A stretch of DNA of 64,000 bases from an uncultured Eubacteriales bacterium (GTDB lineage: Bacteria > Bacillota > Clostridia > Lachnospirales > CAZQDT01). The stretch is taken from contig CAZQDT010000001.1 in the NCBI GenBank assembly GCA_964592005.1, positions 602 through 64,601 of the forward strand, in the 5' to 3' direction. The notes under the pieces are model-generated. The model was not told the origin of the DNA. It made no database searches and saw nothing but the letters and a program-made list of their open reading frames with translations. A program made the translations under genes and the position numbers. Below, piece by piece: positions 5,601 to 32,589 of the stretch. The first letter of the stretch is position 1. Each line of letters starts with the position of its first letter.

Positions 5601-5739
5601 AATAGTTGTTATATTTGGACTTCTGATGTCTACTATTATAACGCTCGTATTTATACCGGTATTGTACTCTATGATAGATAAATTGAGATTGAGAAATAGA
5701 AAAAAACGTAATAAATATAATGTAATAGTAGAAGAATAA
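2635..5739 (+). CDS. RND efflux pump permease (AcrB/HAE1-like)
   Basis: 1034 aa with an AAGGAGG RBS. Twelve-TM layout with two large extracytoplasmic loops. Conserved TM4/TM10-type segments: GITIGIGMLVDNSVVVLENI and LVGMVVNNAIVLIDY. Confidence 0.9.
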   Translation: MLSKISIKRPVTTVMLILMVFLGGILAYSTLNLELMPSMNIPMAVVSTTYTGAGPEEIENLITKPIESTMGTVTNVETVSSISSSGSSIVMIEFVDGTDVDMAALDMREKIDMIKGYLPDDADDPMVLKIDINAEPITIGITSDKMDLKELNTLINDEISNTIEKIEGVSSVSVSGGLEDEIEIVINPEKLQGYGLSAMQIVQSLASENLNYPAGNVMQGETKLQVRLLGEFESIDDIKYLPITTPTGAVIYLDDIAEINQTSKDVEAVSIINGVRGVTLSIDKQSTANLVEVSDKITETIQKLNKEYPNITIKMISSSAGYIRYSINNVVSTAFQSALVAVIVLVIFLKDPKTSLVIGMSIPASIMATFALMYLKGMSMNIISMGGITIGIGMLVDNSVVVLENIFTHWKNGEEPKEASYKGASEVAMAVTASTLTTVAVFLPLAFSSGIVGQIFQDLSFTICFALLSSLVVSLTFVPMMCSRLLSEDKRGTQPKKGWFTKFLDAWERGLDGINNFYQKVLKWCLKNQKKTIAIVLAVFFGTLAITPIMGFDFMPEMDEGSASITIEMPKGTVLDKTIEVVDIVLERISDIPELNLIYANIGGGSSFSAGSADSATVTVSLVGKTQREKSTKEVVKEIEQRLSGVAGAEITVAASDAAMGQLAGSTLSLQISGDDIDVLKEISNDVIALINEIPGAKDIESSAGETVSETNIVINRAKASQYGVTASSISSALSSAVKGTTATQYKVDGTEIDVTIRYDKERVNYINDLKNITVMTSTGASVPITEVADIVVEDSAVSISRENQHRYITIEGNIEGKDTSTIEKLVEEKLSGYDMPDGYSYSFTGIMEQMEEAFNSLFLVLIVAILLVYMIMASQFESLVYPFIVMFSMPIAITGGILGLFITGNTITVVSFMGFIMLVGMVVNNAIVLIDYTNQIIEQKHIKCEEALLEAGPNRLRPILMTTLTTIVGLVPMAIGSAEGMEMEKPLAIVVIFGLLMSTIITLVFIPVLYSMIDKLRLRNRKKRNKYNVIVEE

Positions 5740-6060
5740 ATATTTTGCCGTTTTTTGGTAAAAATCATATAAAATTTAAAAATGGTTTGAGATTAATTTT
5801 ATAAGGTATTAAGGAAAACGACAATATTAGAAGAATTTATCTAAAGATTGATAAAATTATAGTAGTTGTTTGTGCAAATTACCTTGTGATGAGTAATCAT
5901 TATGGTAAAGTTATGAAATATGGCGAGTTGATTTTGATAGAAAAGAGAAGTCAATAAAAATAATTTTAAGCGTTTTGGTATGTGGGTTGCTTGTATTGTT
6001 TGGCTTACAGAAATTTAATATGTAAAATATATTTTCTTAAATTTTATTAGATAAAAATCA

Positions 6061-6105
6061 ATAGAAAGACTTTTTCATATTAATTTTTAATAAAAGTCTT
6101 TCTAT
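6061..6105. other. perfect 14-bp stem-loop in a non-coding spacer
   Basis: ATAGAAAGACTTTT (6061-6074) pairs with AAAAGTCTTTCTAT (6092-6105) across a 17-nt loop. A U-rich tail is seen only when read on the minus strand (TGATTTTTATC). Confidence 0.5.
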
Positions 6106-6284
6106 TCATAGCGAGTATGCGTCAAGAAATAGTTATTATATATAATTCAATAAAGTTTTGCTTAACTCGCAAAAGTTTTTGTATTTGAATTAAATTGAAT
6201 TATATTATATAAATTCAAAGAATTTAACTATTTCTTAGCAACGGAGCTTAGTATTGTAATAGTTTAAAAATACGAAGCGAAAGC

Positions 6285-6330
6285 GTTTTCTGGAAGAATG
6301 TCAAAAATTGGTTTTGAAAATGACATTCGT
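6285..6330 (+). promoter_or_regulatory. 46-nt conserved palindrome-bearing element, copy A (upstream of marR-ABC operon)
   Basis: GTTTTCTGGAAGAATGTCAAAAATTGGTTTTGAAAATGACATTCGT is 39/46 identical to the reverse complement of 32401-32446. Arms GAATGTCA/TGACATTC are separated by 17 nt, followed by a T-run (GTACGTTTTTTC). Confidence 0.6.
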
Positions 6331-6361: not shown

Positions 6362-6390
6362 TTGACAAATGTTATATAAGTAATTATAAT
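6362..6390 (+). promoter_or_regulatory. consensus sigma-A promoter of the marR-ABC operon
   Basis: TTGACA (6362-6367), 17-nt spacer, TATAAT (6385-6390). Confidence 0.65.
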
Positions 6391-6409
6391 TTCAATTAAT
6401 AAATATAAT

Positions 6410-6422
6410 CTAACCCGGTTAG
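6410..6422 (+). promoter_or_regulatory. CTAAC-N3-GTTAG palindrome, site 1 (candidate MarR operator)
   Basis: ATCTAACCCGGTTAGCAAAATGT lies between the -10 box and the marR RBS. The same motif recurs at 6932-6944. Confidence 0.4.
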
Positions 6423-6448: not shown

Positions 6449-6883
6449 ATGGCGACTCAAGAGCAGATTGAAGCCTTGTTAAGTGAACTTAGAAAAGCCC
6501 CGCCTTCAGATTGCTTTCAAAATATTGATAAAAATGCTGCTGGTTTTCGTGCTATTTTACAATATTTATATCATTCCACTAGTACTGTTACAGCAGGTAA
6601 AATCAGTGAGCATATGAATGTTAGTACTGCAAGAGTGGCTGTGTTGTTAAAAAAAATGGTTGCAAAAGGATTGATTAAAAAAGAGAGTGATTCTAACGAT
6701 GCAAGAGTGGTGGTTGTTAAGCTTTCAGAACAAGGATTAAAAATTGCAGAGGAAATGCATAATAGTGTTTTTACACAGGTAGGTAAAATGATTGATAAAA
6801 TTGGTATGGAGCGAATGATGGAATTTGCAGCCATAGCAAACGAAGTACATTCTATTATGTCACCATCGGATTTACAATTATAA
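6449..6883 (+). CDS. MarR-family transcriptional regulator
   Basis: 144 aa with a GGAGG RBS. wHTH core: ISEHMNVSTARVAVLLKKMVAKGLIKKESDSNDARVVVVKLSEQG. Confidence 0.8.
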   Translation: MATQEQIEALLSELRKAPPSDCFQNIDKNAAGFRAILQYLYHSTSTVTAGKISEHMNVSTARVAVLLKKMVAKGLIKKESDSNDARVVVVKLSEQGLKIAEEMHNSVFTQVGKMIDKIGMERMMEFAAIANEVHSIMSPSDLQL

Positions 6884-6931
6884 TATAAAAGAAATCGGCA
6901 GAGAGATTCTGCTTTTCTTTTAGAAAATTAT

Positions 6932-6944
6932 CTAACTGAGTTAG
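6932..6944 (+). promoter_or_regulatory. CTAAC-N3-GTTAG palindrome, site 2
   Basis: TATCTAACTGAGTTAGAAATGTT (arms TCTAAC/GTTAGA) lies 30 nt upstream of the ABC gene start, and its flanks also match site 1. Confidence 0.4.
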
Positions 6945-6973
6945 AAATGTTTTAGATTAAAGGAGATTGTAAT

Positions 6974-8734
6974 ATGTTAAAATTACTAAAAAAGCTTACA
7001 AAGCGTGATTGGTGCTATGTGGCTGTTAGCATTGCATTTATTGTTGTACAGGTATGGCTTGATATGACAATGCCTGATTATATGAGTAAAATTACGGTGC
7101 TTGTAGAAACAAAAGGTAGTGTTATGTCAGATATATGGAATGCAGGCTGTATGATGTTACTTTGTGCGTTGGGTAGTCTTGTTGCATCAATAATTACAGC
7201 AATTTTTACAGCAAGAATTGGTAGTAATCTGGCGGCTTCACTCAGGGAGGCTATGTTTAAAAAAGTACAAACTTTTTCAATGGAGGAAATTGGAAAATTT
7301 TCGACTGCAAGCCTTATTACACGTTCTACTAATGATATTCAGCAAGTGCTGATGTTTATTGTAATGGGTTTACAGATGCTTGTTAAAGCTCCTATTACTG
7401 CAATTTGGGCTATTTTTAAAATTGCAGATAAGGAATGGCAATGGACAATATCAGTAGCTGTGGCTGTTGTTATTTTGCTTGTTGTTATTAGCATTTGTAT
7501 TACACTTACCATGCCGAAATTTCGTAAAATGCAGAAATTAACGGATGATTTAAACCGTGTGACACGTGAAAACTTAAATGGTTTGCGAGTAGTTAGGGCT
7601 TACAATGCAGAAAGTTATCAGGAGGAAAAATTTGAAGGTGCAAATGATGCACTTACAAGAACACAGTTATTTACGCAAAGAACTATGGCTTTTATGATGC
7701 CATCAATGCAGTTAGTAATGAGTGGTCTTTCTCTTTCAGTTTATTGGATTGGGGCATATTTGTTAAGTAACGTTGTTACTACTGATGAAAGAATTTCTAT
7801 GTTTGGGGATATGATGGTATTTACCCAATATGGTATGATGGTTGTTTCTTCATTTATGATGTTAGTTATGATTTTTATGATGTTGCCAAGGGCTTCTGTT
7901 TCTGCAAAACGTGTAAATGAGGTGCTTGATACGGTTCCAACCATTCATAATGGTACAGTTACTAAAGGAAAAAGTGGAATAACTGGAGAAATTGAGTTTA
8001 AAAAGGTATCTTTTAGATATCCTGATGCTGATGAAGATATTCTTCATGATATTTCATTTACTGTTAAGAAAGGTGAAACTGTTGCCTTTATCGGTTCTAC
8101 TGGTTGCGGTAAGAGTACAGTTGTTAATCTTATTCCACGTTTTTACGATGTGAGTGAAGGAGAAGTTTTAGTTGATGGAGTTAATGTCTGTGAATATGAT
8201 GAGTGTGCACTTCGTAACAAGATTGCTTATGTTTCACAAAAAGCAATCCTATTTTCGGGAACGATTCGTTCTAATATTGCTTATGGTGAAAACGGTGGAA
8301 ATTTAATTACTGAAGAAGATATTGCAAATGCAATAGATACTTCTCAAGCAAAAGAATTTGTAGATAGTCTTGACTATTCTTATGATGCTTATGTAGCACA
8401 AGGGGGAACAAATTTCTCAGGTGGACAAAAGCAGAGATTGTCAATAGCTCGTGCGATTGCAAGAAAGGCGGAAATTATAATTTTTGATGATTCATTTTCT
8501 GCTCTTGACTATAAAACTGATCGTGCACTTAGAAAAAGGCTTGATGAAAAATGTAGCGATATAACAAGAATTGTTGTTGCACAGCGTATTGGCACTATTC
8601 GTGATGCAGATAAAATTATAGTTTTGGAAGATGGAAAAATTGTTGGTATGGGTAAGCATAATGAATTGATGGAAAATTGTGAGGTTTACCAGCAAATTGC
8701 TTTTTCACAACTTTCAAAGGAGGAATTAGAGTAA
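6974..8734 (+). CDS. ABC exporter permease/ATPase, subunit 1 of a heterodimer (degenerate Walker B half)
   Basis: 586 aa: 6-TM exporter domain plus NBD. Walker A GSTGCGKST and signature FSGGQKQR. Walker B is IIIFDDS, with Asp where the catalytic Glu is expected. Confidence 0.9.
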   Translation: MLKLLKKLTKRDWCYVAVSIAFIVVQVWLDMTMPDYMSKITVLVETKGSVMSDIWNAGCMMLLCALGSLVASIITAIFTARIGSNLAASLREAMFKKVQTFSMEEIGKFSTASLITRSTNDIQQVLMFIVMGLQMLVKAPITAIWAIFKIADKEWQWTISVAVAVVILLVVISICITLTMPKFRKMQKLTDDLNRVTRENLNGLRVVRAYNAESYQEEKFEGANDALTRTQLFTQRTMAFMMPSMQLVMSGLSLSVYWIGAYLLSNVVTTDERISMFGDMMVFTQYGMMVVSSFMMLVMIFMMLPRASVSAKRVNEVLDTVPTIHNGTVTKGKSGITGEIEFKKVSFRYPDADEDILHDISFTVKKGETVAFIGSTGCGKSTVVNLIPRFYDVSEGEVLVDGVNVCEYDECALRNKIAYVSQKAILFSGTIRSNIAYGENGGNLITEEDIANAIDTSQAKEFVDSLDYSYDAYVAQGGTNFSGGQKQRLSIARAIARKAEIIIFDDSFSALDYKTDRALRKRLDEKCSDITRIVVAQRIGTIRDADKIIVLEDGKIVGMGKHNELMENCEVYQQIAFSQLSKEELE

Positions 8735-10584
8735 TGGAAAAGAAAGAATATGAATTCGGCCAAGCAACTCAAAAACCGATGCGACGTGGTCCAGGAGGTC
8801 CGGGAGGACGAATGGGTAATGGTGAAAAAGCCAAGGATTTAGTTGGTACTTGGAAAAAGTTATTGGGTTATTGCAAAAAATATAGTATTGCATTTATAAT
8901 AGCTATCATATGTGCGATTATAGGTACAGTATTACAATTGTTAGGACCTGATAAGCTTTCGGATATTGCAAAATATATTGAAGAAGGTTTGTTTACAGGT
9001 AATATTGACCTTGATGCTATTTTTGATGTAGGCATTATACTTATTTGTTTTTATGCTGCAAGCTGGATACTTGCGACAACTCAACATTGGATTATGGCAA
9101 CTGTTACGCAGCGAGTATCTAAAACGATGCGTTGTGATATTTCTGAAAAAATTAATCGTTTGCCAATGTGGTACTATAATAGCCATTCAACTGGTGATGT
9201 ACTGTCACGTGTAACAAACGATGTGGATACAATTGGTCAGTCTTTAAACCAAAGTATTGGTAATTTGATTTCACAAATTGTTTTATTTGTTGGAAGTCTA
9301 TTTATGATGTTTATTACAAACTGGGTTATGGCATTTACGGCGGTATTATCAACTCTTATTGGTTTTGTATTTATGATGGTTGTTATGAGTAAAAGCCAGA
9401 AGTATTTTATGCAGCAACAGCGAAATTTAGGTGCTTTAAATGGACATATTGAGGAAATTTATGCAGGTCATACAGTTGTTAAGGCTTATAATGGTGAAGA
9501 ACAGGAAAATAAAAAATTTGATGAATTAAATGCAAAGCTTAGAGATAGCGGATTTAAAGCACATTGCCTTTCCGGACTTATGCAACCATTTATGGCTTTT
9601 ATTGGCAATTTTGCTTATGTGGCAGTTTGTATTGTTGGTGGTGCTTTAGCACTGAATGGTAATATTGATTTTTCAGTTATTGTAGCATTTGTTATGTATG
9701 TACGTTATTTTACACAGCCACTTTCTCAGATTGCACAATCAATGCAAACGTTACAGTCAGCCGCTGCTGCTGGAGAAAGAGTTTTTGAATTCCTTGAAGC
9801 TGAAGAAATGGAAGACGAAAGCCAAAAGACAAAGCGTCTTGAAAATGTAAAAGGTGCTGTTGAATTTAAACATGTTAAATTTGGATACGAAGATTCTGAT
9901 AAGACTATAATCCATGATTTTTCAGCAATAGCGAAGCCGGGACAAAAGATTGCGATTGTTGGTCCTACGGGAGCAGGAAAGACAACTATGGTTAATCTTC
10001 TTATGCGTTTTCATGAAATACAAAGTGGCGAAATTTGTATTGATGGAATATCTACAAAAGATGTTAAACGTGAGGATGTTCATGAACAATTCTGTATGGT
10101 TTTACAGGATACATGGTTATTTGAAGGGACTATTCGTGAAAATCTTGTATATTCGACATCTAATGTATCGGATGAAAAAATTAAAGAAGCATGTAAGGCA
10201 GTTGGTTTGCATCACTTTATAAAAACACTTCCGCAAGGATATGATACAGTTTTATCGGACCAAGTTAATCTTTCGCAGGGGCAAAAACAACAGCTTACGA
10301 TTGCTCGTGCTATGATTGCAGATAAGCCAATGCTAATTTTGGATGAAGCGACATCGTCAGTAGACACCCGTACTGAGTTGCAAATTCAAGATGCTATGGA
10401 TAAGCTTATGCACGGAAGAACTTCGTTTGTTATTGCACATCGTCTTTCTACGATTAAAAATTCTGACCTCATTCTTGTAATGAAAGATGGTGATATTATA
10501 GAAAGTGGTAATCATGAAGAATTGCTTAAAAAAGGTGGATTTTATGCAGAACTTTATAATAGTCAATTTGAACAGGTATCATAA
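8734..10584 (+). CDS. ABC exporter permease/ATPase, subunit 2 of a heterodimer
   Basis: 616 aa. The start overlaps the upstream stop (TAATG). Walker A GPTGAGKTT, variant signature LSQGQKQQ, Walker B LILDEATS with a consensus Glu. The N-terminal tail is Gly/Pro/Arg-rich (RRGPGGPGGRMG). Confidence 0.9.
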   Translation: MEKKEYEFGQATQKPMRRGPGGPGGRMGNGEKAKDLVGTWKKLLGYCKKYSIAFIIAIICAIIGTVLQLLGPDKLSDIAKYIEEGLFTGNIDLDAIFDVGIILICFYAASWILATTQHWIMATVTQRVSKTMRCDISEKINRLPMWYYNSHSTGDVLSRVTNDVDTIGQSLNQSIGNLISQIVLFVGSLFMMFITNWVMAFTAVLSTLIGFVFMMVVMSKSQKYFMQQQRNLGALNGHIEEIYAGHTVVKAYNGEEQENKKFDELNAKLRDSGFKAHCLSGLMQPFMAFIGNFAYVAVCIVGGALALNGNIDFSVIVAFVMYVRYFTQPLSQIAQSMQTLQSAAAAGERVFEFLEAEEMEDESQKTKRLENVKGAVEFKHVKFGYEDSDKTIIHDFSAIAKPGQKIAIVGPTGAGKTTMVNLLMRFHEIQSGEICIDGISTKDVKREDVHEQFCMVLQDTWLFEGTIRENLVYSTSNVSDEKIKEACKAVGLHHFIKTLPQGYDTVLSDQVNLSQGQKQQLTIARAMIADKPMLILDEATSSVDTRTELQIQDAMDKLMHGRTSFVIAHRLSTIKNSDLILVMKDGDIIESGNHEELLKKGGFYAELYNSQFEQVS

Positions 10585-17139: not shown

Positions 17140-17994
17140 ATGAAAGAAATAATAAAATTAAAAAATGATTTAATGTTTAAAATAATGTTTATGAAAGAGG
17201 AAAATAGAGATATATTGCAGGATTTTATAGCATCGGTGTTGAATATTCCATATGAAAGCATAAAAAATATTTCGATAAAAAATTCAGAATTGTTGCCGGA
17301 TATGGTAGTAAATAAATTTAGCAGACTGGATATAAATCTTGAATTAAATAATGAAAAACTTATAAATATAGAAATGCAGGTGCGAAGTCAGGATTATTTC
17401 AATGACAGAACATTGTTTTATCTTGCTAAATTGTATACTTCAAAATTAAAAAAAGGGGAAGAATATGATAGACTGCAACAGAGTATTTCGATAAATATAG
17501 TGGCATTTGATATATTTGAATGCGAAGAGTATCATTCGGAATTTTTGATGATGGAAAAGAACAGACATGAAGTATTTACGGACAAATTTTGTATACATTT
17601 TTTAGAATTAAATAAAATAAACAACAAGACTGGTGAAGATAACCATTTAGAATTGTGGTTAAAATTGATAAATGCTGAAAGCGAGGAGGAATTGAAGATG
17701 ATAGAGCAGGCGGATGTTCCGATGTTGTTAAAAGCGGTGAATGTAGTGAAACAGATGAGCGAAGACGAAAGATTGAAAGAAATTGAGAGAATGAGAGATA
17801 AGGCATTGCACGATGAAGCGAGTGAATTGGGAAGTGCGAGAAGAAAAGGAATGAGTGAAGGGATAAGTATAGGAATAAGTAAGGGCAAAATTGAAGGAAG
17901 AAATGAGGGAATAAGCAAATTTATGGAAACAATGAGAAAATTGGGATATGCAGAAGAAGAAATAAAGAAGATATTGATGAATATTTCTGATTGA
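17140..17994 (+). CDS. Rpn/YhgA-like PD-(D/E)xK recombination-promoting nuclease (putative transposase family)
   Basis: 284 aa with a GGAG RBS. N-terminal family core: KNDLMFKIMF, FSRLDINLEL, INIEMQV, FYLAKLY. C-terminal Gly-spaced repeats (GMSEGISIGISKGKIEGRNEGI) and an LGY..EEI tail. Confidence 0.8.
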   Translation: MKEIIKLKNDLMFKIMFMKEENRDILQDFIASVLNIPYESIKNISIKNSELLPDMVVNKFSRLDINLELNNEKLINIEMQVRSQDYFNDRTLFYLAKLYTSKLKKGEEYDRLQQSISINIVAFDIFECEEYHSEFLMMEKNRHEVFTDKFCIHFLELNKINNKTGEDNHLELWLKLINAESEEELKMIEQADVPMLLKAVNVVKQMSEDERLKEIERMRDKALHDEASELGSARRKGMSEGISIGISKGKIEGRNEGISKFMETMRKLGYAEEEIKKILMNISD

Positions 17995-18017
17995 TAAAAA
18001 TAATTATGATGGGAATG

Positions 18018-18279
18018 AAAAGCGGTGAATGTGGTGAAACAGATGAGTGAAGACGAGAGATTGAAAGAAATTGAGAGAATGAGAGATAAGGCATTGCACG
18101 ATGAAGCGAGTGAATTGGGAAGTACAAGAAGAAAAGGAATAAGTAAGGGTAAGATTGAAGAAAGAAGTAAATTTATAGGAATAATGAGAAAATTAGGAAT
18201 TTTAGAGGTGTAATTAAACAGGCAATAAAAATGAGTAGAAATATTATAGTTAAAATTGATAAATGCTGAAAGCAAGGAG
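18018..18279 (+). pseudogene. scrambled partial copies of the rpn 3' end (may encode a 56-62 aa tail-only protein, 18025/18043..18213)
   Basis: 18018-18139 nearly repeats 17730-17851. Similarity continues with deletions to about 18200. 18249-18273 is a perfect 25-nt copy of 17658-17682, out of order. No N-terminal nuclease part is present. Confidence 0.6.
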
Positions 18280-18692
18280 AAATAGAAAATAATAAAAAAA
18301 TTGTAATTAAAGACAAGAAATCAATTGTCATTATATTAATATTGTTTTAATTTTTTTAATTTAAAGATATTTTAAATTAATATATAATTAATAAAACTGC
18401 AAATTTTTAAAGGTTTTATGAATAGAAAATACATAAAAGTGAGCTTTTTAAGAAAAAATAAAAATTTAAAAAATTTTATTTTTATCTCTTTACTAAAAAG
18501 CAAAATAGTTATAAAATATAAACAGATTGGGTATTTTTTATAAATAAATAATTGTAAGATAAATTATGCCTAGTAAAAATTACAATTAAAAATAAGAAAT
18601 TTTTTTGGAAAGGGGTGTTTTTGGAGAGAAAACTCTTCTAAAATGTTTTAAAGTTAAGCATTTTATGCAAAGTAAAAAGGAGGAAAAGAGAA

Positions 18693-24487: not shown

Positions 24488-27400
24488 ATGAAAGGAGTGT
24501 TTCTCTTGAAAGATAAAAGATTTATGGCGGCTTTACTTGCAGGAACTATGGTATTATCCAATGGTGCAGTAGTTAATGCCGATATGAAATATGAAGCAGG
24601 ACTTCCAGCACAAAGTGACTCGTCAACCCAGTTGGTAGATGTTCTTGAGCCGCTTTCAGATATTCCTGCTTTCCCGGGAGCTGATGGATATGCTAAATAT
24701 GTTACAGGTGGACGTGGAGGAAAAATTATTCATGTAACTAATTTGAATGCTTCAGGAGAAGGTTCGTTGACTGCGGCATTAGAAAATGGTGGTAAAACAA
24801 GCGAGCCTAGAATTATTGTATTTGATGTGTCGGGTACTATTGTTATAGGAAAAGAATTATATAAGAAAAGCTATTCAAATGTTACTATTGCAGGTCAAAC
24901 AGCACCGGGCGAAGGTATTACAATAACAAATGAAAACTTTTATTTAGCACATTCTGATAATGTTATTATAAGATTTATTAAATTTAGGCATGGTCAGGCG
25001 ACAGCAAAAGATGACTCTTTCTATGTACAAAACAGTACAAATATTATGATTGACCATTGTTCATTTGAATATGGTAGTGATGAATCCTGTTCTGCAAGAG
25101 AGAATTCTAATCTTACTTTCCAGTGGTCAATATTGACTAATGGCGTAAGAACTCACTCAATGGGTGGTTTACAGGAATGGAATTCAGAAACAATTCACCA
25201 TTGTTTAATGGGTAACCAGAATGACCGTAACCCTAAAGCCAAAGGTATTATGGATTTTACAAATAATGTAGTTTATAACTGGGGTGATTATCCTTTTGTT
25301 GCAGGTGGTAACTCAGGTGGTCAAGGCTGGGGTAATGTTGTAAATAACTACTTTATAGCTGGTTCAGATACAAAAGACCCAAATCATGCTATTACAAGAA
25401 GTAATGGTAAATATTTCTTGCATTTGGCAGGAAATTTAATTGATTCAAATAAGAATGGTAAATTAGATGGTGTAAATACAGGTATTGATATGATTGCAAC
25501 CTATAATGATGCTAAATATCCTGATAGATTTACATTCCCTGATGATTATACCCTTCCATTGGTGTTGATTAAAAATCGTATGGCTATGGCTGAATTGGAT
25601 TATGTTGACAGTGCAGAAGATGCCTACTATAAAGTAATGGATTTTGCGGGAGATTCAGTATATTATAATACAGATGGTACAACAAAATTATTCCATGATG
25701 ATATAGATACGGAAATTTTATCAGGTGTTCAAAATCAGACTGGAAAACTTCTTCTTCATAATAAAGAAAGTCATAATGAAAAAGGAGAAATCTTTGACCA
25801 AAACTTTATAAATAATCGTCCTCAAATAAATGTAAATGACCCATCTTCAGAGTGGTATCGTCCTGATACTGACCAAGATGGTATGCCAGATGCTTGGGAA
25901 TTGGCTAATGGATTAGACCCTAATAATGCGGAAGACAGAAATAATAAAAATGATGCAGGATATACAATGATAGAAGTATATTTGAATGAATTGGCAGAAC
26001 CGGCATTCCCTGACAATACATATTCTACTGAAGATAAAAAAATAGCAGAAATTATGAAACCTGGTAGAAAAAATGTTCTTGTTTTAGAAAAACAAGGGAA
26101 AGAATATTACTATGATGTTATTAATGGTAAAAATCAGTTAATGATTCCATTAGCACCAGTGGCTGAATATTTAGGATATAAAATGATTAATGTAGCAGAA
26201 GATACAGTAACTATGAGATATCCAGAAGAATTTCCATTAGGTGGTCTTAACTGTGAAGGTAATAATGATGTTATTACGTTTTCGGCAGGAGATGTTAAAT
26301 TCAATGAAACTCTTGTAACTTATGAAGGAAAGTTGTATATGCCTATCAATTATGTATCCTATGGTATGGTAGGTGTTTATGACCAAGTATTGGTAAGTAA
26401 AGAGGATAATATAGTTAATATTTATATAAAAGATGCAGAATTTTATAAAGATTGGCATAAAAATGATGCAAGACAAGAACGTTTAAAATCTGCACCATCT
26501 ATGCTGGCAGAATTTGTAGAAAATAAAACAGAAGATAATACAGAAGTTAAACAACTTAAGATTACTTTTGATAAAGAAGCAGCTTTGGCAGATAATACAA
26601 CAGCAACAATAAGTATTACAAAGAAGACACCATCTTTGACAGTATCAGAAAGTGTATATAATAATGTCTATTCAACATCTACATTTACTGCAAATATAAG
26701 TGATGTGGATATTTGGGGTTCAAATAAGGTTGCGGTTATTAATTTTGAGAATTTTAGAAGTGTTAAAGGAAAATCTTTAAGTGATGATTTTGATGAAACA
26801 GCAACTTATACTGTAAAAATAGATGCAGGTGCTTTTGCTGATTATTACAATGATTATTATGGAACAGATTATGTTACAGATGAAAAAGAATTTGAAATAA
26901 GTTCTATAACAAAAACAACGAATAATCCATCGAACAAAGAGGTTAATGGAGAAACAGAAAATGAATATTTTGTGCAGGAAGATACTTCAACAGTGACAGT
27001 TAAAGAACTTATGCAGGCAGTTTATAAATTGCTTGCTATGAAAGAAGTAAATGCTTCTAACTATGACCAGATTAATGATGGAACAGTAATAGAACCAGAT
27101 GATGCCAATAAAGATGATGACGGAAAAGATGATGACAATAAAGATGATGACGGAAAAGATGATGACGGAAAAGATGATGACAATAAAGATGATGACGGAA
27201 AAGATGATGACGGAAAAGATAATGACGGAAAAGACGATGACGGAAAAGATGATGACAACAATGACGATGACTACGATAGTGATGATGAAACAGAGCCAGA
27301 AGAGCCACAATTACCTACAATGATTGGTAAGGAGACAGTGGAAGAAGCAGGGAATGTTTCTGGAACAGATTCTAAAGAAATTGAAATTATTGTAGATGAA

Positions 27401-28667: not shown

Positions 28668-30518
28668 TTATGTTTCAATTCCTGCAAATTGATTTTGATA
28701 AAGGTTATAATAACAACCTTTCTGTTTGAGCAATTCTTCGTGACTTCCTGCCTCTGCAACTACTCCCTTATCTATAACAACGATGATATCGGCATCACGT
28801 ATAGTTGAAAGTCTATGAGCTATGATAAAACTTGTTCTGCCTTTCATAAGTGAAATCATAGCATTTTGTATGTGCATTTCCGTACGTGTATCTATGGAAG
28901 AAGTAGCCTCATCAAGTATAAGTATTTTAGGGTCTGCAAGTACAGCTCTTGCAATGGATATAAGCTGACGCTGTCCCTGACTAAGATTGCTTCCATTTTC
29001 TGTAAGCATTGTGTTGTAGCCATCTGCAAGTTTTTCTGCAAATTTATCTACATTGGCTGTTATAGCCGCTTTTTTGATATCTTCATCTGTTGCATTAAGA
29101 TTACCATAACGTATATTAGCGGCTATGGTATCTGAAAATATTATAGTGTCCTGAAGAACAATAGCAATACTTTTTCTTAAAGTTTCTTTAGGAATATCAT
29201 TTATATTTATACCATCAAGCTTAATAGTGCCACTATCGACATCATAAAAACGTGTAAGAAGATTTACGACAGTAGTTTTTCCTGAACCGGTAGCACCTAC
29301 AATGGCAATCTTTTGACCACTTTTTACATTAAGGTTAAAACCTTTTAAAACAGGTTCATTAGGAACATAAGAAAATTTTATATCTTTAAATTCAAGATTT
29401 CCTTTTACATCTTCAACTTTGAAATTAGCTTTTCCTGCATCTAATTCAGGTTCTGCATCTATTATTTCAAATACACGTTCAGCACAGGCAATTGCTGTCT
29501 GAATTGAAGCATATTGATTTGCAATTTCATTTATAGGTCTTGTAAACTGTTTGGAATATAAAATAAAAGCTTGAATAATACCTATTGTGATAACACCTTC
29601 AATAGCAAGCCAACCGCCAAAACCGGCAATTATCAAAAAGCTTAGATTTCCTATGACATTCATAAGAGGTCCCATACAACCACCGACAGCTTGAGCTTTA
29701 ATTGCACATATTTTATATTCCTGACTTAATTCATTAAATTGTGCTTGAGATTTTTCTTCTTTCCCAAAAGCAATAACTGTTTTGTAACCACTTACCATTT
29801 CTTCTACATGGCCATTTACACGTCCGAGTATTCGTTGTTGTTCAGGAAAATATTTTCTCATAAATTTTGTCATATATTTTGTGGTAATTACTGTAAATAC
29901 AATAGTAATCATACTTATAAAAGTAAGTAAAGGACTGTAATACAACATAATTGCAAAACAACCTATAAGAGTAATTACACCCGAAAATAAAGAAGCAATT
30001 GACTGTGAAATAGTGTTTGAAATATTTTCAACATCATTTGTCATACGGCTCATAATATCTCCGTGTTTATGGGTATCTACATATTTAATAGGAAGATATT
30101 CAATTTTTGAAAATAAATCCTGACGCATCTTTTTGACAGTAGACTGTGACAATTTCGCAGCTGTAATACCTTGTATATAGGTAAGTGCAGAAGAAATCAA
30201 GTAAGTTAAAAGTAAAATTACTAGGGTGCTTATAAGACCTTCTTTATCTATATGTAAAGTATTCTCATCAATGGTTATTTTATCTATTGCCATACCCTGT
30301 AAAGATGGTGCGGCAAGTGAAAGTAAAGTAGTTGCTAACATAATTACAATTAAGGTTATAACTAAATATTTGTTGCTACCAACATAGGCAACAAGTTTTT
30401 TGATAGTGCCTTTGGCATCTTTTGCTTTTTCAACAGGCATTCCTCTTCCTGGACCGCCCGGTCCTCTTCCACCCGGTCTTAATGGAACGGTAGGAGTTTC
30501 TCTTCTTTCTTCAGCCAT
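28668..30518 (-). CDS. ABC exporter permease/ATPase, subunit 2 of heterodimer (paralog of 8734..10584)
   Basis: 616 aa. Walker A GATGSGKTT, variant signature LSQGQRQL, Walker B LILDEATS. Same Gly/Pro/Arg-rich N-terminal tail (RPGGRGPGGPGRGMP...EKAKD). Confidence 0.9.
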   Translation of the reverse strand: MAEERRETPTVPLRPGGRGPGGPGRGMPVEKAKDAKGTIKKLVAYVGSNKYLVITLIVIMLATTLLSLAAPSLQGMAIDKITIDENTLHIDKEGLISTLVILLLTYLISSALTYIQGITAAKLSQSTVKKMRQDLFSKIEYLPIKYVDTHKHGDIMSRMTNDVENISNTISQSIASLFSGVITLIGCFAIMLYYSPLLTFISMITIVFTVITTKYMTKFMRKYFPEQQRILGRVNGHVEEMVSGYKTVIAFGKEEKSQAQFNELSQEYKICAIKAQAVGGCMGPLMNVIGNLSFLIIAGFGGWLAIEGVITIGIIQAFILYSKQFTRPINEIANQYASIQTAIACAERVFEIIDAEPELDAGKANFKVEDVKGNLEFKDIKFSYVPNEPVLKGFNLNVKSGQKIAIVGATGSGKTTVVNLLTRFYDVDSGTIKLDGININDIPKETLRKSIAIVLQDTIIFSDTIAANIRYGNLNATDEDIKKAAITANVDKFAEKLADGYNTMLTENGSNLSQGQRQLISIARAVLADPKILILDEATSSIDTRTEMHIQNAMISLMKGRTSFIIAHRLSTIRDADIIVVIDKGVVAEAGSHEELLKQKGCYYNLYQNQFAGIET

Positions 30519-32251
30519 TATTTATCCTCCTCCTTTTTCATCTGAGAGTTATAAATATCTTGATATACTTCACAGCTTTTCATAAGATTTTCGTGATTAT
30601 CAAATGCGACAAGGTTTCCGTTTTCGATTACCGCTATTCTGTCAGCATTCATAACACTTGCAATACGTTGTGCAATCATAATTATTGTAGTATCTTTTAA
30701 ATTTTCACGAAGAGCTTTTTGAAGTTTAGCTTCTGTTGCGAGGTCTAAAGCAGAGGTACTATCGTCAAAAATAAGTATTTCGGGATTTTTTAAAATAGCC
30801 CTTGCGATTGACATACGTTGCTTCTGACCTCCTGAAAGAGAAGCACCTTTTTCGCTTACGTAAGCATTATAAGTACCATTAAATTTAGCGATAAATTCAG
30901 AAGCTTGTGCAATTTCGGCAGCTTTAGCAACTTCCTTATCAGTTGCTTTTTCATTTCCCCAGCGAATATTTTCAGCTATTGTTCCTGAAAATAATTCACT
31001 TTTTTGTAAAACAAATCCTATTTTGTTTCTTAAATAATCGAGAGAATATTCTTTTATATTTACTCCGTCAATAAATATTTCTCCGTCAGTAGCATCATAA
31101 AAACGTGGTATAAGATTTACAAGTGAAGTTTTTCCGCAACCCGTAGCACCTAATATAGCGATAGTTTCGCCATGTTTTATATCAAATGAAATATTGTTTA
31201 ATACAGGTTTTGATGAAAAATTAGGGTAATGGAAATTTACATTTTTAAAACTTACAGTACCAACAGAAGTTTCTTTATTATTTTTGCCATCGTAATTTCC
31301 ACTTTTTACAGCTGGTTCTGTATCAAGAACTTCAATAATTCTTTTTGCAGAAGCACTTGCACGGGAAACGCTTTGGAACATATTTCCAAGCATCATAACA
31401 GACATCAAAATTTGTGTTATATATGTAATAGCAGCCATTACTTCTCCGACTTGCATATTTCTTGCTTCTACCTGCATACCGCCCATATAGATTATAGCGA
31501 TTACTGATACATTCATTATTACCATAAGTATAGGGTTAAGTGTAGCCATAAGTTTTTGAACTTTTAAAGTATGATTTATAAGGTCATCATTTGCTTCTGA
31601 AAAACGGTTTATTTCATAATCTTCTCTTACATATGCTTTTACAACTCTTGCACCTGAAACATTTTCCTGTACAACAGAGTTTACTTTATCAAGCTTTGAT
31701 TGAACTATTCCGAAAAGAGGACTTGCTTTTGAGAGAAGCAGCCATAAAAAACAAAGCTGAATAGGAAGTGAAACTGCCATTATTAAGGCAAAATTTACAT
31801 TAAGTGAAAGAGCCATTACTATACCGCCCACAAACTGCATGGTTGTTCTTACAAACATTCTTAATGCCATTCCGACAAAATCCTGAGTAGCGGTAATATC
31901 ATTTGTAAGACGTGTAACAAGTGAACCAGTGGTGAATTTATCAGTCTGTTGATAAGATAAATTCATTACACTTTTGAAAGTATCTTTACGTAAATCATTT
32001 CCAAAACTCATAGCGGATATATTGCCAAAAAGGCTGGAAAGAATACCGCCAAGACACCCTAAAAGCACAAGTCCAAACATTAAAATTCCGGTTTTGAGAA
32101 TTAATTCCATATTTCCAGCGAGTACACCATCATCTACTATCTTTGACATAAGTTTAGGTTGCAAGAGGTCCATAGATACCTCTAACACCATAGCCAAAGG
32201 AGATAGAAGGGCAAAAAGCCAATATGGTTTTAAATATTTTTTTAGTTTCAT
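30518..32251 (-). CDS. ABC exporter permease/ATPase, subunit 1 of heterodimer (paralog of 6974..8734)
   Basis: 577 aa. Walker A GATGCGKTS and signature LSGGQKQR. Walker B is ILIFDDS, with Asp instead of the catalytic Glu. Its stop overlaps the downstream start by 1 nt, as in operon 1. Confidence 0.9.
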   Translation of the reverse strand: MKLKKYLKPYWLFALLSPLAMVLEVSMDLLQPKLMSKIVDDGVLAGNMELILKTGILMFGLVLLGCLGGILSSLFGNISAMSFGNDLRKDTFKSVMNLSYQQTDKFTTGSLVTRLTNDITATQDFVGMALRMFVRTTMQFVGGIVMALSLNVNFALIMAVSLPIQLCFLWLLLSKASPLFGIVQSKLDKVNSVVQENVSGARVVKAYVREDYEINRFSEANDDLINHTLKVQKLMATLNPILMVIMNVSVIAIIYMGGMQVEARNMQVGEVMAAITYITQILMSVMMLGNMFQSVSRASASAKRIIEVLDTEPAVKSGNYDGKNNKETSVGTVSFKNVNFHYPNFSSKPVLNNISFDIKHGETIAILGATGCGKTSLVNLIPRFYDATDGEIFIDGVNIKEYSLDYLRNKIGFVLQKSELFSGTIAENIRWGNEKATDKEVAKAAEIAQASEFIAKFNGTYNAYVSEKGASLSGGQKQRMSIARAILKNPEILIFDDSTSALDLATEAKLQKALRENLKDTTIIMIAQRIASVMNADRIAVIENGNLVAFDNHENLMKSCEVYQDIYNSQMKKEEDK

Positions 32252-32400
32252 TAAAACCCTTCTTTCTACATAAAATATATTTAATATCCAATTACTTATT
32301 TTATCATATAAAAATTAGGATAACAAATGTTTTAAAAAATTTAATTAAACTTTAATATTAAAGTGTTAATGATAGGTTATGCTTTAACCATGACAAATAC

Positions 32401-32446
32401 ACAAATGTCATTTTTTGCCCCAATTTTTGACATTATTCCAGAAAAC
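32401..32446 (-). promoter_or_regulatory. 46-nt conserved palindrome-bearing element, copy B (upstream of ABC operon 2)
   Basis: The reverse complement, GTTTTCTGGAATAATGTCAAAAATTGGGGCAAAAAATGACATTTGT, is 39/46 identical to 6285-6330. It lies 150 nt upstream of the ABC start and has the same orientation relative to the operon. Confidence 0.6.
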
Positions 32447-32589
32447 AGAATGCCCATATAATATAGATTAATGCGTTCTTCTTAGAGAGGACGTTTTGAA
32501 ATATTTACAAAAATCAAGAATTATGGTATTATCCTATAATAATATAAAAATGACATATTTTTATATATTTTAATAAGGGGGTTATTGTA

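Follow-up and report, generated by a model that had tools for sequence, protein, structure and literature searches.

The window, that is, the whole 64-kb stretch of DNA analysed here, carries two operons for heterodimeric ABC exporters, the only ones of this kind annotated in it. Operon A (6449..10584, + strand) begins with a marR gene (6449-6883) and continues with the genes of two ABC half-transporters (6974-8734 and 8734-10584); operon B (28668..32251, - strand) consists of two ABC half-transporter genes (32251-30518 and 30518-28668) and contains no marR gene. The two ABC pairs are paralogues, their proteins being 39% and 41% identical. The G+C content of the window is about 31%, and the nearest relatives of the ABC-B protein are encoded by gut MAGs labelled Oscillospiraceae or Ruminiclostridium (62-70% identity). 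Upstream of operon A lies a MarR-MFP-RND pump operon, which ends at 5739 and is followed by a long spacer with an 18-bp, 94%-complementary hairpin (6057-6109, ATCAATAGAAAGACTTTT/AAAAGTCTTTCTATTCAT); this is likely a terminator, which would separate upstream transcription from the repeat copy described below. The pump operon opens with a second marR gene (678-1151), and the region upstream of it (560-660) holds AAACT-N5-AGTTT-type palindromes after a TTGACA. This array probably represents the own operators of the second MarR and is unlike both the CTAAC boxes and the 46-nt element that are treated in the following paragraphs.

Each exporter operon is preceded by one copy of a 46-nt element. Copy A (6285..6330, + strand) is organised as GTTTTCTGGAA-G-AATGTCA-(17 nt)-TGACATT-CGT (full sequence GTTTTCTGGAAGAATGTCAAAAATTGGTTTTGAAAATGACATTCGT), and copy B (32401..32446, - strand; reverse complement GTTTTCTGGAATAATGTCAAAAATTGGGGCAAAAAATGACATTTGT) is identical to it at 39 of the 46 positions, as the sequence-only reading of this DNA had claimed. 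The palindromic cores span 6297..6327 in A (AATGTCA at 6297-6303, TGACATT at 6321-6327) and 32404..32434 in B (arms at 32428-32434 and 32404-32410). The arms are perfect 7-bp inverted half-sites in both copies, with 17 nt between them and 24 bp from centre to centre, and the left flank GTTTTCTGGAA, an 11-bp asymmetric stretch that includes a small TTC-N2-GAA dyad, is preserved as well; both features had been described correctly. The clustering of the differences, also pointed out beforehand, is confirmed: five of the seven are consecutive and lie at the centre, where the 5 nt of the A spacer are unlike those of B, an arrangement reached by about 6e-4 of random placements of seven. The longest exact run common to the two copies is 15 nt.

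The 46-nt repeat is real and sharply bounded. Among all inverted-repeat pairs in the window, the one formed by its copies ranks first, and the degenerate pattern of their shared bases is matched twice there, versus no match in 100 dinucleotide shuffles. Within the 64 kb, the pattern ATGTCA-N(10-30)-TGACAT, or the left flank plus an arm, occurs at these two sites only, and no third copy, half copy or partial copy of the element was found in the window. The surrounding sequence had been called otherwise unrelated, and indeed no significant similarity is present on either side: the left flanks of A and B are identical at 9 of 40 positions and the right flanks at 19 of 40 in register (p ~0.01-0.07), a count that other offsets equal or exceed. 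An extension of the homology into the right flank, including the TTGACA/TTAACA found there at equal distance, was considered and rejected as not significant.

Both copies have the same orientation relative to the exporter operon downstream, in agreement with the earlier description. That description placed both copies 120-150 nt upstream of the first gene of a two-subunit ABC exporter operon. For copy B, this gene is the ABC gene starting at 32251, 150 nt away, but the 119 nt that follow copy A lead to the marR gene at 6449 and not to an ABC gene; the first ABC gene of operon A (6974) is 644 nt from copy A, behind what is apparently its own MarR-controlled internal promoter. Copy B is also located 144 nt upstream of a divergent putP-like sodium:solute symporter gene (32590). 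The predicted sigma-70 promoter of marR-A (6362..6390, + strand; TTGACA-17-TATAAT, 12/12) begins downstream of copy A, 31 nt beyond its end, and the MarR box at 6410-6422 directly adjoins a second TATAAT (6404-6409). The predicted promoter of operon B (32298..32326, - strand; TTGTTA-17-TAAAAT plus an upstream TG) starts 74 nt downstream of copy B and is retained in L003 and L004, two loci whose ABC-B proteins are 92% and 99% identical to that of the window. Relative to these predicted promoters, the centre of the element falls at about -90 for copy A and at about -133 for copy B, positions that are 43 bp apart. Since the predicted promoters are downstream of both copies, the element is, on these predictions, outside both transcripts.

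The MarR encoded at 6449 (MarR-A) has a clear phylogenetic footprint of its own, of textbook MarR type, with two CTAAC-N3-GTTAG boxes per operon, which is a more solid by-product of this analysis than the reading of the 46-mer. Both putative boxes are outside the 46-mer: box 1 (6410..6422, CTAACCCGGTTAG) directly follows the -10 element, and box 2 (6932..6944, CTAACTGAGTTAG) is located in the marR-ABC spacer. Orthologous A-type loci were gathered via MarR homologues at 77% (L005-L008), 67% (L181) and 65% identity (L183 and L184). Specifically, CTAACC(N)GGTTAG followed by CAA stands directly after the -10 hexamer in L181, L183 and L184, as at 6410-6422 in the window, and L005 has a lone GTTAG only at the position of box 1. 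The CTAAC-N3-GTTAG of box 2 is exact in the window, L005, L183 and L184, and L181 carries the one-base variant CTAAGTGAGTTAG; the boxes map to 873 in L005, 1461 in L181, 1461 and 1987 in L183, and 1470 and 1982 in L184. Ahead of box 2, the marR-ABC spacer contains a hairpin that is terminator-like and conserved, and also an ATTAT motif. In the window, this hairpin is found at 6897-6913, between marR-A and box 2, as GGCAGAGAGATTCTGCT followed by TTTCTTTT, and L005, L181, L183 and L184 have hairpin-like sequence of a similar kind at the corresponding place.

The two boxes of each A-type operon are likely the operators of the MarR at 6449, and they imply that the ABC genes have an internal promoter of their own under MarR control. 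The layout recalls that of MepR of S. aureus, for which inverted GTTAG repeats cover the -10 element and the TSS of mepR and two further sites lie at mepA (PMC3936728). Likewise, one CTAAC-N3-GTTAG box of the window follows a hexamer resembling a -10 element at the marR promoter, and the other stands before the pump genes. In contrast, the half-sites of MarR-A have the opposite arrangement and a 3-bp linker, while the solved MepR complex has two GTTAG half-sites with 4 bp between them (PMC3936728).

Three explanations of the 46-mer had been put forward from the letters of the DNA: a shared operator for one regulator, with the MarR at 6449 as an example, an attenuator hairpin, and a short leader ORF. 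The general idea of the first, one common cis site, stands as the best explanation, but its proposed binder does not, as this MarR has its own, different operator. An additional operator of MarR-A at the 46-mer would fit the adjacency of the marR gene to copy A, the absence of a MarR gene proper to operon B and the fact that palindromes are targets of MarR proteins; we nevertheless judge it very unlikely, because the CTAAC-N3-GTTAG operator, conserved in the window and at orthologous loci of 65-77% MarR identity, is absent from the 46-mer, as is anything like it. Moreover, no match to this box within 3 mismatches is found upstream of operon B, the exact box is present in 0 of 80 B-type loci, and orthologous MarR-A loci are, conversely, devoid of the 46-mer. 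A single MarR dimer covers roughly one helical turn. The arms of the 46-mer, at 24 bp from centre to centre, are spaced much more widely than the half-sites of the MepR operator with their 4-bp linker (PMC3936728), and the element further differs from MepR-type operators in its half-sites, in its place upstream of the promoter and in not being conserved together with the MarR. Such an operator would overlap the -35, the -10 or the TSS, whereas the 46-mer ends 31 nt (A) and 74 nt (B) before the predicted promoters begin. MarR 6449 is accounted for by other sites, and the shared-operator explanation is disfavoured in the form in which it was written.

The other two explanations place the function of the 46-mer in a leader transcript, and both are at odds with the position of the two copies upstream of the best predicted promoters. 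An RNA hairpin acting there as an attenuator or terminator, to which we give a slim chance, would build on the perfect 7-8 bp stem with a variable loop in both copies and has a precedent in bmrCD of B. subtilis, which is under attenuation control (PMC4191407). In that system, the leader-peptide attenuator bmrB is co-transcribed immediately upstream of bmrC, its translation is required, and three alternative stem-loops are formed, including an intrinsic terminator (PMC4191407). The 46-mer resembles bmrB in lying upstream of a heterodimeric multidrug-type ABC exporter and in combining a hairpin with a possible short ORF, but its one hairpin is weak, neither a Shine-Dalgarno sequence nor a terminator is present, and it is located upstream of the predicted promoters. 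The T-rich sequence said to follow both copies is a real run (T6) in A only, where it starts 5 nt after the stem. On the sense strand, the stem of 7-8 A/T-rich pairs with its 17-nt loop has a folding energy of -8.1 (A) and -6.6 (B) kcal/mol, with z-scores against shuffles of +0.13 and +0.38, respectively; in copy B, moreover, the fold of lowest energy is a different one. The putative leaders from the element to the start codon likewise score z 0.03 (A) and -0.64 (B) against shuffles. A terminator scan called none at either copy, and a comparison with Rfam 15 gave no gathering-score match in the window and none at E <= 1 in either intergenic region. Furthermore, in operon A the element is set apart from the ABC genes by the entire marR gene, another hairpin and MarR box 2. 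As for the leader ORF, the ATG in the left arm does open sense ORFs, namely MSKIGFENDIRTF... in A (MSKIGFENDIRTFFLLY..., 33 aa) and MSKIGAKNDICVF... in B (MSKIGAKNDICVFVMVKA, 18 aa), but that a short leader peptide begins within the 46-mer is scarcely credible: four codons differ between the two ORFs, one synonymously and three with a change of amino acid, and the peptides diverge in sequence and length right after the repeat (33 vs 18 aa). The mini-ORFs had been noted to be without a good Shine-Dalgarno sequence, and this is the case, the GGAAG ending 1 nt before the ATG and offering no usable one. In copy A, the left flank is upstream of the ATG, and a stop codon is found 11 codons upstream with no start between; therefore, coding cannot explain the conservation of the left flank.

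The distribution of the 46-mer is narrow. No match to the strict element pattern is found in 185,579 species genomes. The gap between ATGTCAAAAA and AAAATGACAT is 9; a metagenome scan with a gap of N{10,14}, which excludes the element's own 9-nt gap, returned 90 matches, which are chance palindromes without the left flank, and the corrected element patterns gave chance matches only in viral contigs. Comparison with plasmids and phages by blastn yielded partial matches only, with E of at least 0.09 among the matches listed. A protein-anchored scan retrieved 80 B-type loci (L101-L180), and the check suggested earlier, namely whether the element always precedes this ABC pair in relatives, has a negative outcome: the 46-mer is absent from the 80 B-type loci and from the recovered A-type loci (65-77% MarR identity). 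The best ungapped match to the element in the 80 B-type loci covers 26 of 39 specified bases, versus 22 in coding controls, and the best Smith-Waterman score of the element against them is 31, versus a shuffled maximum of 30. An apparent diverged copy in L002 was discarded, as its score of 24 is inside the null range. Among the loci recovered, the 46-mer thus appears to be lineage-specific and absent outside this lineage.

The same loci are informative about the regulation of B-type operons. In 56 of the 80, an ORF of ~105-230 aa (typically ~157 aa) abuts the ABC gene, and the abutting ORF of L002, the one that was family-scanned, is a MarR. Since operon B of the window has no such ORF, it has lost its dedicated regulator and, being without an adjacent one, needs another input. 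In at least 26 B-type loci from species-level genomes, the motif CAATTTTCATCAATTTTTCAC is located 10 nt upstream of TTATTGACA (-35); this non-palindromic motif is probably a control site of MarR-ABC-ABC (B-type) operons. The form (G)TCAATTTTCATCAATTTTTCAC is seen in L102-L160 at ~590-730 nt upstream of the ABC start (e.g., in L106, L123, L133 and L160). By eye, GTGAAAAATTGATGAAAAT resembles GTCAAAAATTGGTTTTGAAAATGAC, which raised the idea that the 46-mer is a diverged inverted copy of CAATTTTCATCAATTTTTCAC, but an nhmmer profile of that motif had neither copy among its matches in the window, the Smith-Waterman scores against the 80 loci are hardly above those of shuffles, and the idea was rejected as unproven. 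Two or three direct repeats of GGTTACAAA(A) are present in L103, L104, L105, L108, L112, L115, L133 and L138, at ~700-780 nt upstream of the ABC start; they adjoin a divergent opposite-strand TTGACAT...TATAAT promoter and recur in many B-type loci.

A near-identical strain, represented by two contigs of sample SRR33013266, gives a closer view of the copy B region. L004, on the ABC-B side, encodes a 99%-identical ABC-B protein and does not differ from the window between the start codon and about -118; its last 58 nt are unrelated, and the contig ends at -163. L190, on the putP side, encodes a PutP from the cluster of the window protein (clusters built at 90% identity); its identity with the window reaches from the start codon as far as about -94, beyond which it diverges up to the contig end at -115. 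Neither flank is significantly similar to the 58 divergent nucleotides of L004. In comparison with the window at ~32370-32496, the divergence (L004 1-58, L190 1-21) and the contig ends both fall in the central part of the intergenic region, the part that copy B occupies, which suggests that this stretch is a strain-variable block or that the assembly breaks there. The copy B region is replaced or unassembled in this strain, and both core promoters are unchanged; therefore, the block would be young and dispensable for basal expression.

The age of the repeat is addressed by a further comparison. The copies are 85% identical over exactly 46 nt, between unrelated flanks, the operons they precede encode proteins of ~40% identity, and the element is missing from the orthologues, which together argues for a recent common origin and not for an ancient operon duplication. 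Such identity, apparently too high for an independent origin, implies that the element was copied recently or is under strong selection, in either case in connection with the two promoter regions.

Our preferred explanation, held tentatively and with rather less than even confidence, is that the 46-mer is a protein-binding regulatory DNA site of a putative factor that couples both operons. The preservation of the arms and the left flank around a replaced centre, and the placement of both copies in the same orientation before the only two exporter operons, argue for a link to these operons, and this link favours a protein-binding regulatory site. Moreover, a position upstream of the core promoters is the place of upstream regulator sites and not of leader RNAs. 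The 46-mer would act as DNA, not as RNA; its inverted half-sites, its centre that is free to vary and its asymmetric 11-bp flank would fit binding upstream of the -35 by an oligomer, or by two factors side by side, and the bound factor could be an upstream activator or use the site as a distal operator. In this way, operon A, with its own MarR repressor and separate operators, and operon B, whose MarR has been lost in this lineage, could come under common control. Protein binding, the identity of the regulator, the sign of the regulation and the promoters as predicted are all what we infer, and two copies only make covariation or motif statistics impossible. Known small-regulon upstream sites, such as those of response regulators or activators before transporter operons, share with the 46-mer the palindrome, the variable spacer, the position upstream of the -35 and the repetition before related operons, but the 85% identity of its copies over 46 nt is higher than usual and their distance from the promoter differs by 43 bp. 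To our knowledge, a half-site spacing of 24 bp with an 11-bp asymmetric flank fits no regulator family or consensus; among the consensus sites known to us, none of those of CodY, CcpA (cre), TnrA/GlnR, PadR (ATGT-N8-ACAT), the Pho box, CtsR, ComK, sigma-54 and ECF promoters fits the spacing.

Some observations weigh against a regulatory site. The identity of 39/46, which includes the asymmetric flank, exceeds the usual constraint on transcription-factor sites and points to recent copying, which a mobile or dispersed repeat would explain just as well. The two copies are not equally far from their core promoters. In addition, the strain with the 99%-identical ABC-B protein has an identical core promoter and diverges from -119 upward, and the operon of this close relative can therefore do without the block adjoining the element. 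The main rival is accordingly a small dispersed palindromic repeat (REP-like, or a miniature mobile element) or a recombination scar, free of any dedicated regulatory role and placed where it is by coincidence or insertion-site preference, an explanation that is possible, although on the whole unlikely. The 46-mer is short, palindromic, sharply bounded, intergenic and lineage-specific as REP-like and miniature palindromic repeats are, its arms resemble terminal inverted repeats between unrelated flanks, its identity extends to the non-palindromic flank, and all orthologous loci examined are without it. In copy A, the palindrome is enclosed by an imperfect direct repeat (CGTTTTCTG/CGTTTTTTCTG), but copy B has no bracketing direct repeat. 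Near the genes, the SRR33013266 contigs agree with the window at ~100%, and around the element they depart from it and come to an end; two copies per 64 kb would be compatible with ~80 copies per genome. Yet the 64-kb window is free of additional copies, whole or partial, the phage and plasmid collections and the viral contigs gave nothing related, and the strict pattern is equally without a match in the species genomes; no family of such repeats is seen in the collections searched. No transposase gene with matching ends is present among the annotated proteins of the window. At variance with REP-like repeats, both copies are promoter-proximal at paralogous operons, the only two of their type, in the same orientation, for which the chance with two random intergenic insertions is ~1e-3 (a rough estimate).

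Recent copying and regulation may also be combined. A portable cassette may have been copied recently between the paralogous promoters, rewiring the MarR-less operon B onto a regulator shared with A, or the 26-kb segment may flip between the inverted copies; taken together, these variants are distinctly unlikely. The inversion taken separately, in which the inverted copies 26 kb apart serve as recombination substrates that invert the segment with both exporter operons, is highly improbable. The copies are indeed inverted and bracket 6331-32400, and contigs of the closely related strain break at copy B, but the proteins of the window that were scanned include no serine or tyrosine site-specific recombinase, the only transposase-family protein annotated in the window is a PDDEXK_2 protein (17140-17994), and the longest exact run shared by the copies is no more than 15 nt. 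Inversion would leave both operons on their own core promoters, and there is therefore no obvious switch.

If a protein does bind the 46-mer, as the preferred reading of a regulatory site supposes, the site would define a small and very young regulon that joins two ABC exporters of the multidrug type in an uncultured gut bacterium resembling Oscillospiraceae, and it would be an example of an operon gaining new control after the loss of its dedicated MarR repressor. If the cassette or the flip were true, the locus would show that drug-efflux genes of an uncultured gut anaerobe had their cis-regulation rewired very recently. As a private upstream site in two copies, the 46-mer would be nothing out of the ordinary; its interest is local, for efflux regulation and for the spread of regulatory sites, and it opens no long-standing question.

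Other repeats are found elsewhere in the window. In the region 17140-18300, a 153-nt direct repeat (17730-17882 and 18018-18170, 90% identical) and a 52-nt repeat come after the PDDEXK_2 gene (17140-17994); they may represent a duplicated or decayed second copy. At 27052-27306, twelve tandem 15-nt units encode an Asp-rich repeat (roughly K-D-D-D-G/N) in a 1243-aa protein with copper amine oxidase N-terminal-like domains.
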